NCBI GenBank assembly: GCA_048213135.1
Contig: PS015707.1
Location: 19,105-52,652, forward strand
Direction: 5' to 3'
Length of the DNA stretch: 33,548 bases
Source of the DNA: Reclinomonas americana ATCC 50394
Taxonomy: Eukaryota
A program made the translations under genes and the position numbers. Position 1 is the stretch's first letter, and every line of letters starts with the position of its first letter. The notes under the pieces are model-generated. The model was not told where the DNA came from and did not search any database. It was given only the letters and a program-made list of their open reading frames with translations. Positions 9,294 through 33,415 of this stretch are shown piece after piece.

Positions 9294-9780
9294 NNNNNNN
9301 NNNNNNNNNNNNNNNNNNNNNNNNNNNNNNNNNNNNNNNNNNNNNNNNNNNNNNNNNNNNNNNNNNNNNNNNNNNNNNNNNNNNNNNNNNNNNNNNNNNN
9401 NNNNNNNNNNNNNNNNNNNNNNNNNNNNNNNNNNNNNNNNNNNNNNNNNNNNNNNNNNNNNNNNNNNNNNNNNNNNNNNNNNNNNNNNNNNNNNNNNNNN
9501 NNNNNNNNNNNNNNNNNNNNNNNNNNNNNNNNNNNNNNNNNNNNNNNNNNNNNNNNNNNNNNNNNNNNNNNNNNNNNNNNNNNNNNNNNNNNNNNNNNNN
9601 NNNNNNNNNNNNNNNNNNNNNNNNNNNNNNNNNNNNNNNNNNNNNNNNNNNNNNNNNNNNNNNNNNNNNNNNNNNNNNNNNNNNNNNNNNNNNNNNNNNN
9701 NNNNNNNNNNNNNNNNNNNNNNNNNNNNNNNNNNNNNNNNNNNNNNNNNNNNNNNNNNNNNNNNNNNNNNNNNNNNNNNN
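9294..9780. other. Assembly gap (others at 463-482, 15569-15588, 24977-25950, 26780-27641)
   Basis: N runs. Confidence 1.
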
Positions 9781-11914: not shown

Positions 11915-14900
11915 TCACCGCTGTAAGACCTTGTACACATCGCGATGATGGCACACATCCTCCTTCTGCGAGCAATAAAATACGGCCAATCCGTCATCCG
12001 GTCGTCTTGCACTGGACGCCGTCGAGCAGCCACAGTCCTCCCACGAACGCGACTCCACTGTTCCCCGCAGGCGAAACAACGATGAGTACGAGCTCACACG
12101 CACACACATTCGAGAAAACATAATCAACGCAACCCCGTTTGCCTCGTCGCAGCAGCATGTCGTATCTGGCGGCGAGACTGATCACGTCTTCTGACAGCAC
12201 CTTGTACGAGCCCTCCTGGAGCACCTTCTTCAGCGCCACGTCCGACACGATCTTGCGCAGCTTCTCTCGCAGGTTGGGGATTTTCATGCCCTCGGGGATC
12301 TGCTTGATCAACTCGACCGCATCCTGCACACACATACATCATCATTATCACCACCGCACGAGTTACCACTATTTTCTCGTTCAAATCACGCAACAAACTC
12401 GGTGCCGATGTGATCCAACAAGCTGGCAATGTGCTCCGGGTCCTTGACACTCAGCTGGATCAGGTCCTGCTTCAGACCGACGTCGTTGTGGTCCACCACA
12501 AACTCCACCGCCATCCGCACGTTGCGGAGCTTCTCCATAATCAAGTGCAACGCCTGCTTCAGGTTGCCCATGCGGCCAAGCACATACACCACCTCCTCGT
12601 TCCTTCCGTAGTGTCTGCGGCGCGAAAGAACGTGAGCAGTGGGGAGGAATAAACCAACCAGGATCAACAACGGTATCAACGGAACTCGCAGATGGCCAAC
12701 GCTCGGTCCAGCATGTAGTGGTCGCTGCGCTCCAAAAACTTGAGTAGCAATTTCTGTTCGCGGTCTTGCGGAGTATCGTACTTGCAGTACAGCTCAATCT
12801 GCATGGGGGTGAACAGACACTCTCTTTTGAGAAACAATAGCATCCCATTTAGAGGACTGGGAGGAACGCACCTGTCTCTCGTGGAACTGAGCGCCAGCTG
12901 CCCTATCCTTTTCAAACAGCGCATGCAAAAAGTAGTGCAGGTTCTCTTCCCGACCAATGGCCTCCAGTTGTGCCACCACCCGCTCCGGCTGCGACAAAGC
13001 ATGTCAGCGAAAATGCAAATGGACACACACGCGCAAACACACCACGGCGCGCGACTCAACCTTGATGCGATCGGCATTGGCAACAAACAACTCCACGGCC
13101 CGCTGCACATTAAATTCGAGCAACTCCTGCAGGCTGTCTTGCACTTCGTGGAACAAGTTGTTTTCGCGAATGTAGTCAAAGGCCGACTCCTTGCGGAGCT
13201 GTAGATACAGCTGTAGTGTCCGCGTCTGGTTACCTTGGCGTCGGTACCTGTGGCGTGCCACCGCACGTCAGTTTCTCTGCTCCACATAACAAAGCACACA
13301 CGGGCATCGGTGACGCAACAACTCCGCCAAGCCCTCCATCAATAGTTCACGCCCTCGACCTTCCGCAGTACGAATGGCGTCCTCGGCGGCCACAATCACC
13401 GTGTGCACGTTGTACAAATCGATTGGCCACGAAAACACGCGTTCCACAAAACGCTCCGGATCCAGAGCAATGAAACGCGACAACACCATCTCGTACACCT
13501 CGGCCGGCAACGCATCCTCTGGATTCACGTCGAACGGGATGTGCACGGCGATGGCCTGGCATACCGACGACGATGACAAGGTGTGAGACAAGTGCTATTC
13601 GTTTCCCCTCGACCCCTCTCGTAACGCACCGGTAGTTTGTTCTTCTGGTCAAACGTGTAAATCCACTTCTCCCACAGCGCCTTGTTGTTGCCAAAAAATC
13701 TCTTGCACTGCTCAGCCGCAAAGTCGTAGTCATCTGGGCACGCAAGTCAATTTTTCTTTTTCCACACATTTCGCATAGATGAGGACGCAACTGCTCTCCA
13801 TCAGAGACGTCAGGTAGCTCTCCGCCACCGTCACCAGCGTGTTGGGTGGCAGAATGGCAGCATTTTGCTGCGCACACTCCAGGGCCTTGGTGAACCTGCA
13901 CAAAACAACATGAGGCCACTGCCGACGGAGAAGGAAAAAAGGGTATGGAGGACTCAACTCGCTGCGGGTCACCAGCCACGTGATGTGGTCGTACATGGTC
14001 CGATTGCGCACGGCCACAATGTCGTGAGGTGAGACCACATAGTAGGTGGCCACCCCATTGACCACCACCCACTCCAACGAGTAATCGCGCCAGTCACATT
14101 CGTGGTGCCTGTGCAAGTGTGCGCGCGAGATGAGAATCAGTGCGCGGGGACAACGACGACGACGACGACAACCACTACTCACCCTCGCAGCGGCAACTCG
14201 TCCGTCAGGTGCTCCTCATTTCTCCTCGAAACGATGCGCACTTCGGGCTTGGCGCCGGTTTGTGCTACGGGATCGTCAGCCTGAAAGCAAATTGCGTGTC
14301 AATGATCTGCATCGACTGAGATTGTTCATGACAAACACCACCACACGCAACGGGCGCATCGTCTGATCTCGGGTACGCCACCAGCACCAGCCGGTCGGCG
14401 TCGAGTGGTCGGATGCCGCATACCGTGTAGTCCGTCATAAACCTGCAAGACACCAATGAGTGAGAATGCTGTAGGGACAGATAGCACAACAGAGGAGCAA
14501 CGCAACATGGAGGTGATTTCCATACACCGAGCGGGAAGACCCGAGTCTCGCTGCTCCTGCGTCGTATCCTACAGGGAAAGCACGAAAGCCGATGAGCAAG
14601 CTCGGAAGACCGATGGAGAAACACTGACTGGCCGTACCTTGACTTGTGCAATGGTGACCGTGTTGGCCCAGGCAATCAGCAACCGCACGCCCGTCTCCCA
14701 CACCAGACTGCACTGGTACAAGTCAGGTCGCAAGTTGCTGGCTGGCCTGTGAATGTTGGTGATCTTTTGGCCGAGCGACAAGTCGTGGACCTGCGGGTTT
14801 CCACCAGGTTTTCAGCAACGCACCCACCGACAATCTCTCTCACTCTCTCACTCACACGACCCACACACCTTGACACCCCGATCATTGGCCCAGGCGATCA

Positions 14901-15568: not shown

Positions 15569-15704
15569 NNNNNNNNNNNNNNNNNNNNAAAGACGGAGTC
15601 AATCGATCTGCACTCTGTTAGTCAGTAAGTGACTTTTGTGTTTGTGTGATGTCTCTGAGTGCATCATGCGTGGCCATTCTGGAGGCACTTGCACGCGGAC
15701 ACAG

Positions 15705-21278: not shown

Positions 21279-22216
21279 TCATCTGCCCTTCTCATCACCC
21301 TCCAGCGCCTTGCGCAACCACGTGCGACTGTGGCCGGCAAAGTAGTCGTCGATGCGCCCAATGTCGTCGTAGCCGAGACGCCGGTAGAACTCAGGCGCCT
21401 GAAAGTCAAACGTGTCGACTACAGCGCGTCGACATCCGCGCTGCCTCGCCAGCGACTCGAGTCGCCGCAGCACCTCCGAGCCCATTCCGCGTCCGCGCAT
21501 CGACTCGTCCACCCACACCATCTTCACCTGCAAGTCGCCGCCCAGTGTCACGCCCGTGGCCGCAGCCACGAGCCTCCCACGTTCGCGTACTAGCACGCCT
21601 GCGTCCACGTAGCGCCACGCAAAGCCCACAGCCTCGGTGGCGTGCGCCGAGAGTCCCTCGTTGATCACACGCGCGTCCTCGGCCGACACGCGATTCACCG
21701 ACTCGACTACAGTGTCGGGCGACAAGTGCTGTCGCTCCAGCATGTGCTGCACTGCGGCTGCGTTCGTGGGCAAGCGATCGGGGGCGCTTGGACAAGTCGC
21801 CTCCAATCGCTGCAGTTCCTCTTCCCATTGCGCGTGGCGCTGGAGGAAGCGACGACGGGCGAAGCAGTAGGGGACGAGAGAGAGGCCGAGTGTGCAAAAG
21901 GCGAAGAGCAGACCGCAGGCCAGTGGGCCTTGCAGCTCCTCGTGGGCGCGAGGTTCGTGCGAGAGGTGCGTGCGTCGGCGTCGCTGTGTGGTGTCGGGCG
22001 ATTCCTGTGCATGTGTGGGTGGTGATGAGAGGGCGTGCCAGGGAGAGCACACACACACACACACACTCGTGTGCCACGCACAGGGGATGGGGGCAGCTGG
22101 ATCGCTCTTTGTTGATGATCATCATCGTCTTCGTCTTCGTTTTCGCCAGTGTGATGCAGCAGTGAGCGACGCAGCTGCTCGGTGACCTTGTCGACGCTGT
22201 CGCTGGCGTGCGTCAT
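21279..22216 (-). CDS. GNAT-family N-acetyltransferase with N-terminal extension and one hydrophobic segment; exons 22216-22082 and 22004-21279
   Basis: Motif A VWVDESMRGRGMGSEVL and motif B VDTFDFQAPEFYRRLGY; phase-0 intron 22005-22081 (GTGCGT..CAG). Confidence 0.88.
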
Positions 22217-24976: not shown

Positions 24977-25950
24977 NNNNNNNNNNNNNNNNNNNNNNNN
25001 NNNNNNNNNNNNNNNNNNNNNNNNNNNNNNNNNNNNNNNNNNNNNNNNNNNNNNNNNNNNNNNNNNNNNNNNNNNNNNNNNNNNNNNNNNNNNNNNNNNN
25101 NNNNNNNNNNNNNNNNNNNNNNNNNNNNNNNNNNNNNNNNNNNNNNNNNNNNNNNNNNNNNNNNNNNNNNNNNNNNNNNNNNNNNNNNNNNNNNNNNNNN
25201 NNNNNNNNNNNNNNNNNNNNNNNNNNNNNNNNNNNNNNNNNNNNNNNNNNNNNNNNNNNNNNNNNNNNNNNNNNNNNNNNNNNNNNNNNNNNNNNNNNNN
25301 NNNNNNNNNNNNNNNNNNNNNNNNNNNNNNNNNNNNNNNNNNNNNNNNNNNNNNNNNNNNNNNNNNNNNNNNNNNNNNNNNNNNNNNNNNNNNNNNNNNN
25401 NNNNNNNNNNNNNNNNNNNNNNNNNNNNNNNNNNNNNNNNNNNNNNNNNNNNNNNNNNNNNNNNNNNNNNNNNNNNNNNNNNNNNNNNNNNNNNNNNNNN
25501 NNNNNNNNNNNNNNNNNNNNNNNNNNNNNNNNNNNNNNNNNNNNNNNNNNNNNNNNNNNNNNNNNNNNNNNNNNNNNNNNNNNNNNNNNNNNNNNNNNNN
25601 NNNNNNNNNNNNNNNNNNNNNNNNNNNNNNNNNNNNNNNNNNNNNNNNNNNNNNNNNNNNNNNNNNNNNNNNNNNNNNNNNNNNNNNNNNNNNNNNNNNN
25701 NNNNNNNNNNNNNNNNNNNNNNNNNNNNNNNNNNNNNNNNNNNNNNNNNNNNNNNNNNNNNNNNNNNNNNNNNNNNNNNNNNNNNNNNNNNNNNNNNNNN
25801 NNNNNNNNNNNNNNNNNNNNNNNNNNNNNNNNNNNNNNNNNNNNNNNNNNNNNNNNNNNNNNNNNNNNNNNNNNNNNNNNNNNNNNNNNNNNNNNNNNNN
25901 NNNNNNNNNNNNNNNNNNNNNNNNNNNNNNNNNNNNNNNNNNNNNNNNNN

Positions 25951-26779: not shown

Positions 26780-27641
26780 NNNNNNNNNNNNNNNNNNNNN
26801 NNNNNNNNNNNNNNNNNNNNNNNNNNNNNNNNNNNNNNNNNNNNNNNNNNNNNNNNNNNNNNNNNNNNNNNNNNNNNNNNNNNNNNNNNNNNNNNNNNNN
26901 NNNNNNNNNNNNNNNNNNNNNNNNNNNNNNNNNNNNNNNNNNNNNNNNNNNNNNNNNNNNNNNNNNNNNNNNNNNNNNNNNNNNNNNNNNNNNNNNNNNN
27001 NNNNNNNNNNNNNNNNNNNNNNNNNNNNNNNNNNNNNNNNNNNNNNNNNNNNNNNNNNNNNNNNNNNNNNNNNNNNNNNNNNNNNNNNNNNNNNNNNNNN
27101 NNNNNNNNNNNNNNNNNNNNNNNNNNNNNNNNNNNNNNNNNNNNNNNNNNNNNNNNNNNNNNNNNNNNNNNNNNNNNNNNNNNNNNNNNNNNNNNNNNNN
27201 NNNNNNNNNNNNNNNNNNNNNNNNNNNNNNNNNNNNNNNNNNNNNNNNNNNNNNNNNNNNNNNNNNNNNNNNNNNNNNNNNNNNNNNNNNNNNNNNNNNN
27301 NNNNNNNNNNNNNNNNNNNNNNNNNNNNNNNNNNNNNNNNNNNNNNNNNNNNNNNNNNNNNNNNNNNNNNNNNNNNNNNNNNNNNNNNNNNNNNNNNNNN
27401 NNNNNNNNNNNNNNNNNNNNNNNNNNNNNNNNNNNNNNNNNNNNNNNNNNNNNNNNNNNNNNNNNNNNNNNNNNNNNNNNNNNNNNNNNNNNNNNNNNNN
27501 NNNNNNNNNNNNNNNNNNNNNNNNNNNNNNNNNNNNNNNNNNNNNNNNNNNNNNNNNNNNNNNNNNNNNNNNNNNNNNNNNNNNNNNNNNNNNNNNNNNN
27601 NNNNNNNNNNNNNNNNNNNNNNNNNNNNNNNNNNNNNNNNN

Positions 27642-30065: not shown

Positions 30066-33000
30066 CTAGTGCTCGTGGCCGTGCCCACTATCGGGTGGCA
30101 GTGCACCTGCTTGTGCCGCGCGCAGCAAGCGGTGCACCTCGGCCAAGTGCGCCTGCAGCATAACAGCCACATCGCTCTTGATCTGCAACACGCGCAATCA
30201 GCATCCAGCAGAGAAAACAGACCTACTCTGCGTGCGTACCTGGGCGGCCACCGCGTCACTGACGGCTCGCAAACTAATGGCGCGCTGTGCACGCGCACGC
30301 CGCAACAACTCGTCCTCGTCCACAAACGCACCACCCTGCACGGCAAAGTCGTCGGCCGGCGATGCGAAACTGCGCTGTGGTGAAAGGACGGCCGGTGTCT
30401 CGGGGACCAACAACGGCATCTCCTCGGCTGATCGCCGGCGCGAGTGGCCCGCTTGAGAGGCGGCAGCTGGCGGTGCTGCGGTCGCACCCATTTGTGGATC
30501 GTAGTGGTGGTAGTGATGTACATCGTGCGACGGAGCAGCGGCGTGATGCACATCGAGATGCACATCGGCAGCTGCGGGAATTGGAGACATGAATGGAAGA
30601 GAGATGGGCATAGACGTGGGTAGGAACAGGACATATACACACCAGCAGCACTGGCCGTGTTGACAGTGCGCTCCTCTTCGGAAATGTCGGCCAGACGGCG
30701 GCGAATGTGGCGGATTTTGAGGATTTGCCGTGTGGTCTTGTCCTCGATTCGTTTCTGCGCTCACGCACGAGTTAGCAAAGCATTGCGACTGTGTGCATAC
30801 ACATCGGGGCAATGGATACCACGCACCGCGCCCTTCAAGTAGTACGGATCCTCGTCTTCCAAGTTTTCGGTCTCGCAACCAAACTTGTACGACTCCCAAC
30901 TGATTTGAATGAGGCGCGCGCACTCCTCGCGGTGTTGAGCCATGAGACGCCGTCGCTGCATCCAGAGAATGGAGTGCATCTCAAAGTCGTTCGGGCGCAT
31001 CTTGACGTGAATGTAGTCGATGAGGAAGGCGAAGAGGAAGAGACCCCACACGACCGACATCTGCGAGGTGGAGAAAAGAGAGAAATGAGTGCCGCGCGGA
31101 GGTGCGGTGCAAAGAGGGGAGGAGAGACCATGCATACGGCCTTGCCCATGGAGGTCTGCGGGATATAGACCGAGTACGCGTCGACAGGATAGCCGGTGGC
31201 CAGGCAGGTGAAAATCAACTGCGCGGAGCAATCACAGTGAGCGTGCTTGCTCAAGAAGAGGTGGAATATAGCACGCAACAAACAGCGATCCGGTAAAGTC
31301 AAACAGCATCGGCTGTGCCTCGCGCTCAAACACATACACGCAGTATGTGCCGAGCCTGTGACGCGCTCCAATGAGTGACTGCACGCACGTCTGCACAGTG
31401 CAGAAGAAGAGACGCAACAGGATGCCGATTGTCATCCACGACAGACAAAAGAGCACGGGATAGTCGTGGAAGAAGACACGGAGGGTGAGCGACACATTGA
31501 ATGTGGGTGCCAGCTGGTGCTTGAAGCCGGGGATGCGTCGCACGAGTCGGCGTTGCTGGTAGATCAGACTCGTGTCGCTGCAGGGAGGAGAGTGGGGGAA
31601 GGAGTGGGTGCGAGGTGGGAACAGGGGGAAGGAACAGGGGGAAAGAGCAGGGGGAAGGAACAGAGGAAATGGAGAGAGGGAAGGAACAGGGGGAAGGTGA
31701 AGGGGGAAGGAGAAGGGGGAAGGAACAGGGGGAAGGAACAGGGGGGGAAGGAACAGGGGGAAGGAACAGGGGGAAGAGCACGGGGGAAGGAACAGGGGGA
31801 ACGAAAAGGGGGAAGGAGAAGGGGAAAGGAGAAAGGGGGACGAACAGGGGGAAGGAACCGGGGGAAGGGGAAGGAGGGGAAAGAGGGAAGGAGAAGGGGG
31901 AAGGAACGGGCGGCCAGAGGCGAAAGTGTGACAGAGAAAATCCACGCGGCATGCATCACCCGCGACGTGTCACTCACCGCACGAGGAACAAAACAGTGAG
32001 CAAGCGTGGAATCATGGCCACCGTCAGCAGCTTGTCCGTGGCCACACCTGCAGCAGTGCCGTCTGTAAGTGAGCATCGCCTTACGGATGGCACACTGACC
32101 GGTGGAGGGAGTGTGCCTCACCAACATAGTCGACGGGATGTGGCAGAAAAATGAGAATCCAAATCCAAAACTGCGTGCGGAGAATACACGTCAGCTGCAC
32201 TCGCCGCGTGGTGCAGCAGTGCCTTCACCGACACCAAACCGTGTAGCGAGTGGTCGAGCGTGCCCACATGGCCCAGAAGCCCGGGTTGAGCTGGCGCAGA
32301 CGGGCCTTGCGATGCACGTTCTGAATCGTGTGCGGACCGACATGAATCATGGACTCGCGCCTGCAACAACGCGCTCACAGTCGGATGCCGAACAGCAAAC
32401 ACAGACGAAAATGAGCTGCTACAGAACGCAACAGCTCATTGATCTTGCGCTGCACATCGCTCTCGATCTTGGCGGCACGCGAGTCCTCGATCTTGTTCAC
32501 GATGCGCGTTCGGAAAAGATCCACCACTTGGATCACTGCACGCGGCACTCAGCTGCTGTACAGTGGGTACCAAGGGAGAACCACAAAGCAAAAACGCAAC
32601 GTGTAATCACAGTCAGCACCGAGTTGATAATCTTCAGCGTGCGACCCGCACTCGTCGGCAGCAACGAACTGCCGTTCCACTCCAGCTCCAGCTGCAGCAG
32701 CATGCAAGCAACAGTGAGTGTTCGATATGCGTCGAAATATGGCCGTCACAACTACACTACCAAGGCACTGCTGTGCTATTCCTCCTCCTCCTCCTCCTCC
32801 ACTTACACAACATGTAGTGTGCAAAGGCGGGAAGGAGAAACAAGCGACGAGAGTTGTTCGAACACGCGCCAACAAAAAAGATACCCGATTCTCTCTCCTT
32901 TATCTCTCTCCACTCTTTTGGAGTCACAGTGCTGGTACGCAACGACCACCACAGCAATGGCCAGAGAGAGCACAGAGGTGATTGTCAGCAGCACATCGCG

Positions 33001-33415
33001 CAGCATCACTCGGCGATCGCGTTGTTCGCCATTGACCTCCAGCGATCGAATGTTGAACCTGCAACAGCAGCATCTCTCGTGAGAGACAGACAGAGAGTGA
33101 GAGAGTGTGACAAAGAGTGAAGACGTGACTGTCGCGTGGAGCGCTCCACAGGTGCCAACATTGCTTTCAGAGGAACATCGCGTCCGGGCGAGGGTATCAA
33201 TGGAGGATGCACGTCTTCCAGTGCCTCCTCCGCCCAGTGTCGCTGTGCGCCAGAGGGTGGAGGAGAGGAGGCCACTGAGGGACCGGGTGACACACTGCTG
33301 CCTCCTCCTCCTCCTCCTCCATCATAACGCGACTGTGTGTCTTGTGTTGTCAGTTGCTGTGTGAAGAATAGGATGGGAGGCAAGAAGGCACAAAAAAAGG
33401 CGCAACGTCCATCAT
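30066..33415 (-). CDS. SK/KCNN-like (small-conductance Ca2+-activated K+ channel family) 6TM channel with atypical pore, multi-exon
   Basis: Joined exons parallel SK: TLKIINSVLTVI (S2), FLPHP (S3), AMIPRL (S4), FNVSLTLRVFFHDYP, YVFERE (S5), TCLATGYP..PQTSMGKAVC (pore), and KMRPNDFE..ARLIQISWESYK (CaM-binding region); ATG 33415, TAG 30066. Confidence 0.85.
31613..31910 (+). repeat. Degenerate purine-rich minisatellite, unit ~CAGGGGGAAGGAA (13 bp), inside a channel-gene intron
   Basis: About 20 imperfect copies visible; almost entirely G/A on the + strand. Confidence 0.92.

Follow-up and report, generated by a model that had tools for sequence, protein, structure and literature searches.

A stretch of 33,548 nucleotides from Reclinomonas americana (the window) carries on its minus strand a 14-exon gene that ends with a TAG stop at 30066. 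By sequence, its product is a distant relative of the SK and IK potassium channels, alignable over its whole length and closer to them than to other channels with six transmembrane helices. The exon for its pore loop encodes a rewritten selectivity filter, and the same kind of filter is found in every relative that we recovered. We are highly confident of the descriptive result, a small, conserved and so far unnamed eukaryotic clade of SK/IK-like proteins with a rebuilt filter. What such a pore would conduct is weighed further below.

The pore exon and the family that shares its filter

The part of the gene that drew attention to this locus is a single short exon:

31129 to 31218, minus strand: pore-loop exon (exon 10), with the end of the pore helix, the T-G-Y-P-V-D filter and the extra loop A-Y-S-V-Y; I-P-Q-T-S-M-G-K follows, and after it the start of S6
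31186 to 31188, minus strand: Pro codon CCT, where G-Y-G has its second Gly; Pro also in three of the six database relatives

The original prediction had described a 90-nt exon between CAG and GT without naming a strand. The minus strand gives its peptide exactly: with the standard code, LIFTCLATGYPVDAYSVYIPQTSMGKAVCM is the translation of the reverse complement of 31129-31218, and the plus strand yields an unrelated peptide. The exon is 90 nt long and in phase 0 at both ends, with the acceptor ...ctccgcgcag before it and the donor gtctctcc after it, and the introns on either side (61 and 68 nt) contain no N. The predicted replacement of the second filter glycine by proline is read directly from the CCT codon at 31188-31186; three further sub-clades share Pro at this column, so that a sequencing error at this codon is unlikely.

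The GTCTCT donor is unusual. It is nevertheless supported by homology, as it leaves nine residues between G-K and G-L-F-L-F, and the relatives have this spacing too. A GTATGC site 9 nt farther upstream was rejected as the donor; it leaves six residues between these motifs and gives the wrong spacing to S6. Also rejected was the reading of a 30-nt in-frame GT..AG segment within the exon (gtcgac...cccgcag) as an intron, which would cut out the conserved D and P; no gap is seen there in the alignment with the relatives, and no intron of the gene is shorter than 57 nt. The prediction had asked as well whether another exon might supply a canonical filter, and none of the window's six frames contains an alternative exon with the motif [TS]xG[YFLW]G[DENS]. 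As a separate observation, skipping of this phase 0-0 exon would preserve the reading frame and yield a pore-less protein.

Relatives were sought with the S4-S5/S5 stretch 31280-31576 (99 amino acids, including a 63-nt intron read through), whose matches involve mainly residues 1 to 56, ahead of that intron. Among 1,835,955,588 representative proteins, HMMER found six matches at E <= 0.001 (8e-9 to 9.5e-5); a profile search added P0009 and P0010, and an exact look-up added the members of the 90% clusters. All of these proteins are unnamed save one labelled "hypothetical protein," and all are of JGI/IMG origin except one NCBI fragment. With every relative unnamed and below the Pfam thresholds, the suggestion that this might be an uncharacterized subfamily has held up. 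Six relatives span the pore and align with the spliced window protein, gap-free from S4 to the first helix after S6. Their pore segments are as follows:

Window, 31129 to 31218, minus strand: LIFTCLATGYPVDAYSVYIPQTSMGKAVCM
P0003: LIFLCMVTGWAADVYDRYDPLTSIGKACCV
P0005: IIMNSLLTSWGDDTFDIYTPVTWPAKIICI
P0006: LSFISMFTGWPSDVYEEYDPRHFFTRLACI
P0007: VSISMMLLGWPADVQGNHVPRTSTGTILSF
P0008: IIINSCLLGWGSDTFDEYTLRTWPGKILSL
P0009: LSISMMLLGWPADVRGELVPGTYTGTVLSY

The consensus of the clade is [T/L]-[G/S]-[W/Y]-[P/A/G]-x-D, followed by an equally long loop before P-x-T (loop length is the same in all seven sequences). All seven, the window included, have the Asp. The aromatic position is W in six and Y in one, the window; the residue before it is G in six and S in one. 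At the column of the second Gly, four sequences have P (the window among them), two have G and one has A. The two with Gly have the filters L-G-W-G-S-D (P0008, and also P0013) and T-S-W-G-D-D (P0005), and the K+ signature G-[YF]-G-D occurs in none of the seven. These rows are not independent, P0007 and P0009 being 66% identical and P0005 and P0008 49%. The sub-clades are only 25 to 45% identical, yet the W/Y, D and P-x-T residues of the pore are kept, and S6 and the pore loop rank among the best conserved parts of the alignment.

The window gene fits this family closely. Its pore exon aligns over 30 residues without a gap to all six relatives and is identical to the closest, P0003, at 16 of the 30. 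The BLOSUM62 score summed over the six is 293, compared to -162 +/- 50 for shuffled sequences (z 9.0; none of 10,000 shuffles reaches it). A hidden Markov model (HMM) of the six relatives, from which the window was excluded, matches the spliced protein with 280 bits (E 1.5e-87 at Z=1), from S1 to beyond the HA helix and without gaps from S4 to HA. The genomic contexts of the relatives are informative as well. P0006 (503 amino acids) occupies a 1573-nt contig, with the loop inside uninterrupted coding sequence, and the loop of the relatives is thus not an unspliced intron. P0017 and P0010 lie on one 2852-nt contig as two gene calls that form the halves of a P0014-type channel. The break between them (..NSFF|LSISMMLLGWP) falls at the column of the window intron after exon 9 (..GSLF|LIFTCLATGYP), and the two genes therefore appear to share an intron position before the pore exon.

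Other searches gave little. A word-indexed protein search found no match with the pore exon, only the query itself with P0006, and four proteins with an alignment (A1). Metagenome contig scans returned 432 pattern stretches with another alignment (A3) and 91 stretches with P0003, with no relative in either set, and an Atlas search limited to unnamed clusters gave no usable match.

The original prediction had allowed that the variant might lack orthologs and reflect decay. The filter architecture is instead found in every relative, and the gene itself is open with coding-type composition. Since the architecture is kept throughout the clade, it is best seen as an old, selected trait of the clade and not as a lesion of the window gene.

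Kinship with SK and IK channels

When the profile of the six relatives was run against all PDB sequences, the 12 best distinct matches were KCNN2, KCNN4 or a chimera (E 5.3e-20 to 1e-10), and the alignment spanned profile positions 14 (in S1) to 376 (in the C-terminal helices). KCNQ5 followed as the next family (E 9e-8), and still weaker matches were seen to CNGC (E 0.006 to 0.05) and MloK1 (E 0.25). The SK-like nature proposed for the gene is thus borne out, and the SK pore sequence that had been quoted for comparison agrees with SK2 and the SK2-4 chimera in this alignment. Landmarks in common with SK include M-F-L-R-L-Y in S4, E-R following S5, P-x-T-x-x-G-K following the filter, and A-A-x-[VL]-[LI]-x-x-x-W-x-x-Y-K in the HA helix.

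Single exons of the window carry much less of this signal. The S6/HA exon by itself has KCNN4 residues 272-329 as its sole PDB match, a weak one (E 0.85); phmmer with exons 8 and 9 found nothing in the PDB at E <= 10, and three single exons matched no Pfam family at E <= 1.

Structural comparisons used AlphaFold 2 (AF2) models of P0006 and P0003. A Foldseek search with the P0006 model put SK2 or SK4 at all of ranks 1 to 19, the best at E 3.8e-5 with template modeling scores of 0.34/0.46. VIA, run with the P0003 model against 48,161 chains, placed SK2 (Z 10.5, root mean square deviation 17.9, 144 residues aligned) and SK4 (Z 9.7) first; pores of NaK, KcsA, TRPV and Kv channels come within one Z unit of them, and with such ties the result shows only the pore fold common to tetrameric cation channels. 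It is in ranking only that the structural comparisons agree with the profile. In an Atlas feature search, the nearest clusters to P0006 were protist K+ channels (Oomycota, Haptophyta and Ciliophora) and IK/SK clusters, which we take as a lead only.

Compared to the animal SK/IK channels (KCNN1-4; KCa2.x and KCa3.1), then, the clade shares the profile match from S1 to past S6 and has them as its best structural matches, with about 15 to 19% identity in the structural alignments. It differs in lacking T-x-G-Y-G-D, in a pore loop 4 to 5 residues longer, and in an S6 that ends L-L-I-D-Y-[VI]-H, unlike the SK sequence. The K+ signature and the SK_channel and CaMBD thresholds all fail, and for this reason we do not file the window gene as a KCNN member.

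The rest of the gene and the window

The gene model was built by a script from the minus-strand reading and the tblastn placement of the relatives. Besides the pore exon, it consists of the following exons, of which the first is tentative:

33130 to 33161, minus strand: tentative coding exon 1, with an ATG at 33161 (inference only)
32944 to 33058, minus strand: exon 2, N-terminal region and S1
32601 to 32691, minus strand: exon 3, L-E-L-E-W-N-G motif following S1, and start of S2
32433 to 32535, minus strand: exon 4, end of S2 and loop
32240 to 32360, minus strand: exon 5, cytoplasmic S2-S3 loop
32122 to 32170, minus strand: exon 6, S3 (FWIWILIFLPHPVDYV)
31978 to 32047, minus strand: exon 7, S4 (..LLTVAMIPRLLTVLFLVR)
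31419 to 31577, minus strand: exon 8, S4-S5 linker (DTSLIYQQRRLVRRIPGF..., where conservation within the family is highest) and first half of S5
31280 to 31355, minus strand: exon 9, last part of S5, F-E-R-E motif, turret and beginning of the pore helix (..GTYCVYVFEREAQPMLFDFTGSLF)
30827 to 31060, minus strand: exon 11, S6 (GLFLFAFLIDYIH) and the first helix after S6, with L-I-Q-I-S-W, aligned to the SK HA helix
30643 to 30754, minus strand: exon 12, basic helix after HA (KRIEDKTTRQILKIRHIRRRL...)
30240 to 30571, minus strand: exon 13, His/Ala/Pro-rich insert, then the start of a conserved C-terminal helix
30066 to 30182, minus strand: exon 14, C-terminal helix and TAG stop

The coding sequence is 1701 nt in 14 exons (about 566 amino acids) and is open throughout. 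The acceptor is CAG in 13 of 13 introns; the donors are GTTGCGT (five), GTGAG (two), GTGCGT, GTGTGT, GTACGC, GTTTGG and GTCTCT, with GTCACG at the tentative first intron, and 11 of the 13 introns are 57 to 74 nt long. Removal of the 63-nt intron in 31280-31576 gives S5 exactly the length that it has in the relatives. The GC content is 0.725 at third codon positions (GC3) and 0.414 at second positions (GC2), and that of the introns is 0.563, a composition of the coding type. The 5' end is tentative, with ATG 33325 as possible as ATG 33161. The window ends only about 220 to 390 nt past the likely start of the gene, and one flank of the gene therefore falls outside it.

Two further features lie within the gene. 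The His/Ala/Pro-rich stretch of exon 13 (..DVHLDVHHAAAPSHDVHHYHHYDP..), about 100 residues between the helices that follow S6 and the C-terminal helix, has no counterpart in the six relatives. The one long intron (31578-31977, 400 nt, between the S4 and S4-S5 exons) is occupied for the most part by a 13-nt minisatellite at 31618-31907 (GGAACAGGGGGAA on the plus strand; 22.4 copies, 77% matches).

The source organism is GC-rich, with short GT-AG introns and TAG used as a stop. The heptamer GTTGCGT, the donor of five of the 13 channel introns (32937-32943, 32594-32600, 32426-32432, 31412-31418 and 31273-31279, minus strand), occurs 24 times in the window, compared to 8.9 +/- 2.7 expected, and none of 100 shuffles reaches 24. 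It resembles an extended consensus for 5' splice sites in this organism.

Elsewhere, a Pfam scan covered 27 long open frames. Within the window, we noted these other features:

21279 to 22118, minus strand: GNAT acetyltransferase domain in an open frame (Acetyltransf_1 at 45.4 bits, E 1.1e-11, above the cut-off)
12127 to 14506, minus strand: six minus-strand GTTGCGT sites
12676 to 13338: sub-threshold Pfam match to Vps41 TPR-like (E 1.6e-4, 21.4 bits compared to a cut-off of 27)
463 to 482, 9294 to 9780, 15569 to 15588, 24977 to 25950 and 26780 to 27641: five runs of N, 2363 bases, none within or beside the channel gene

The heptamer sites at 12127-14506, together with the sub-threshold match, suggest another multi-exon gene there, possibly Vps41-like. 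Rfam gave no match over the window.

Selectivity and gating of the rebuilt pore

The glycines of G-Y-G need backbone angles that are unattainable for Pro, and loss of the second of them abolishes K+ selectivity. Prole and Marrion likewise describe replacement of the second filter Gly as abolishing selectivity or function (PMC3283738). In the clade, this column is P, A or G, evidently with no selection for Gly, while the W/Y and the Asp are fixed. The second change is in length. From the last residue of the pore helix, which is T in the window and S in SK, to the P of P-x-T, the loop has 12 residues, compared to 8 in SK, a net surplus of four, or of five if G-Y-P is laid on G-Y-G; the latter is the register of the original prediction, which had counted about five extra residues before P-x-T-x-x-G-K. 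In both AF2 models, a 14-residue pore helix ends at the T before G-W (H312-325 in P0006, H86-99 in P0003), and 11 to 14 unstructured residues lead from there to S6. Around the loop, the predicted local distance difference test (pLDDT) is 61 to 86 over both models, and it is 64 to 86 in the pore region of P0006.

We imagine that four subunits would assemble into a cation pore in which Pro or Ala at the left-handed Gly site would preclude a four-site K+ filter. In its place there may be a short constriction of a few backbone carbonyls with a ring of four invariant Asp, as in CNG and NaK channels; by analogy with these, the pore would pass Na+ and K+, and perhaps Ca2+, without K+ selectivity. The conservation of the S4-S5 linker, of the S6 motif L-L-I-D-Y-[VI]-H and of the HA helix, where L-I-Q-x-x-W is found in 7/7 sequences, suggests that gating is of the SK type, with calmodulin resident on the L-I-Q-x-x-W helix after S6 and acting on the S4-S5 linker. 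A rise in Ca2+ would then depolarize the cell rather than hyperpolarize it. Our best explanation as a whole joins the intact 14-exon gene and its clade to a non-K+-selective, Ca2+/calmodulin-gated cation channel; tetramer, permeation and calmodulin gating are the parts of it that we infer, and we hold the whole tentatively, being nearly evenly divided and inclined slightly toward doubt.

Several observations weigh against this explanation or parts of it. The AF2 models are poor overall (mean pLDDT 54 for P0006 and 61 for P0003, each from a six-sequence alignment). A prediction of the tetramer from four copies of the P0003 pore domain, in which the alignment was not used, scored 0.21 (mark 0.32) and speaks neither for nor against the explanation. 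HMMER aligns the pore in another register, which anchors on P-x-T, lays D-v-Y-d-e on I-G-Y-G-D and opens a gap in the pore helix. We judge this register less likely, because both models end a pore helix of normal length at the T; the preferred, though less than settled, placement on these models is that T closes the pore helix, G-[W/Y]-[P/A/G] fills the filter and the surplus follows it. Pfam matches are also below the cut-offs: SK_channel (PF03530) reaches 21.3 bits in one of five relatives (cut-off 31.8), and Ion_trans_2 (PF07885) reaches 20.9, 19.1, 17.5 and 10.4 bits in four of the five and is absent from the fifth (cut-off 22.5). CaMBD (PF02888) is absent at E <= 1 from the five relatives and from the S6/HA exon of the window. 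A loose IQ pattern ([FILV]Qxxx[RK]xxxx[RK]) is found at the HA helix in 4/7 sequences; the window, whose IQ-like motif is missing its basic residue, is not among them, and a strict pattern that includes Gly is found in none of the seven. Of the claim that the S4-S6 flanks and the calmodulin region are intact, the first half stands, S1 to S6 and the first helix after S6 being intact and alignable. The second half stands in part: L-I-Q-x-x-W is present in all seven sequences, while CaMBD and, in the window, the IQ-like basic residue are missing. Finally, two of the seven members keep G-W-G or W-G-D (P0008 and P0005), so that some of the clade might still select K+. Kir channels have a longer loop after the filter, and loop length alone is compatible with K+ selectivity.

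Among other explanations, the one that survives best, though we consider it unlikely, is that these proteins are obligate heteromeric modifiers, "silent" subunits that do not conduct alone and that co-assemble with a canonical G-Y-G SK-like subunit to tune conductance, selectivity or trafficking. Strong conservation of S4-S5, S6 and HA would suit a subunit that must assemble and gate, and there are precedents. In Prole and Marrion (2012; PMC3283738), KCa2/3-like proteins with GYSD or GYSE filters adjoin canonical paralogues in Leishmania and T. cruzi, and such a role was proposed for these kinetoplastid "GYX" paralogues. TbK1 and TbK2 form a heteromeric K+ channel (PMC9799330), although a GYG/GYX pairing of the two is not stated in the part of that source available. 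By comparison, neither a second SK-like gene nor a canonical filter motif is present in the 33.5-kb window, within the bounds of its 2363 N and of the one gene flank outside it. Retention of W/Y, D and P-x-T across sub-clades that are 25 to 45% identical also speaks for a pore that is in use and under selection.

Somewhat less probable again is that K+ selectivity is retained, the G-[W/Y]-x triplet, the Asp and a Kir-like long outer loop making up an unusual K+ filter. This is most conceivable for P0008/P0013 and P0005, whose L-G-W-G-S-D and T-S-W-G-D-D are near G-Y-G-D; the spacing from T to D is that of T-V-G-Y-G-D, the pore helix has the canonical length in both AF2 models, and the nearest profile relatives are all K+ channels. 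The second-Gly position argues otherwise, being P in four of seven (the window included) and A in one: G-x-G is evidently not maintained by selection, and Pro is unable to take the backbone conformation of that Gly. A non-conducting scaffold or calmodulin-binding protein, or a pseudogene in this genome, to which the Y in place of an otherwise invariant W, the single acidic loop residue and the non-basic IQ-like position of the window might point, is very improbable given that 14/14 exons are open with consensus splice sites and a GC3 of 0.725 compared to 0.563 in the introns, and that the protein matches the family HMM at 280 bits, gap-free between S4 and HA, with S6 and the pore loop well conserved.

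For the non-K+-selective channel that we favor, the nearest published parallel is the set of KCa2/3-like GYX proteins of kinetoplastids (PMC3283738). These kinetoplastid and Trichomonas proteins are also from protists, are closest to KCa2/KCa3 and no longer have the second glycine of G-Y-G; an IQ-type motif follows closely on their last transmembrane helix, and the authors suggested that these proteins are non-selective or non-functional. Compared by published motif description, their filters are GYSD, GYSE or TIGYRD with no reported insertion, whereas the clade has G-[W/Y]-[P/A/G]-x-D and 4 to 5 additional residues. GYX genes adjoin canonical paralogues, and the window gene has no such neighbor within the window.

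With CNG, HCN and NaK channels the analogy is limited to mechanism: they too combine a K+-channel pore fold with an altered or shortened filter and a ring of acidic residues. NaK and CNG chains also match the P0003 pore domain in structure (Z 9.6 and 8.4), tied with many others. The clade differs in having no Pfam cyclic-nucleotide-binding domain, in its filter sequences and in far weaker profile E-values. In the openly accessible literature, our search found no description of an SK-like clade with a G-[W/Y]-[P/A/G]-x-D filter. As all of its domain matches are below threshold, the family is missed by current domain libraries, and its genes are annotated as hypothetical proteins.

Paramecium has SK channels in its cilia and a calmodulin-activated, Ca2+-dependent Na+ channel, for which the parts of the sources available name no gene (PMC8208649 and PMC9608856). 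The latter is the kind of current that one would expect from an SK-like pore that is not selective for K+; what is known in Paramecium is a phenotype and not a sequence, and the window organism differs from it in reading TAG as stop and in being GC-rich. One can envision that the clade is a new class of Ca2+/calmodulin-gated, depolarizing Na+ or cation channels on the SK scaffold, the counterpart of protist calmodulin-activated inward currents, but we regard this as doubtful. In that event, gating of the SK type would drive opposite electrical outputs through a change confined to the filter. The Ca2+-dependent Na+ current of Paramecium would be an example of such a counterpart current, an equally doubtful assignment; nothing ties the clade to ciliates.

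SK/IK channels are the textbook converters of a Ca2+ rise into hyperpolarization. The clade described here keeps the voltage-sensor-like domain of SK, the S4-S5 linker, S6 and the counterpart of the first calmodulin-binding helix, with the K+ filter replaced. If our reading is true, it would be a natural experiment in which one gating machine has been re-coupled to a different ion. If Na+ or Ca2+ is conducted, protists would have in it a Ca2+-activated depolarizing channel, and its members would be candidate genes for calmodulin-dependent cation currents.

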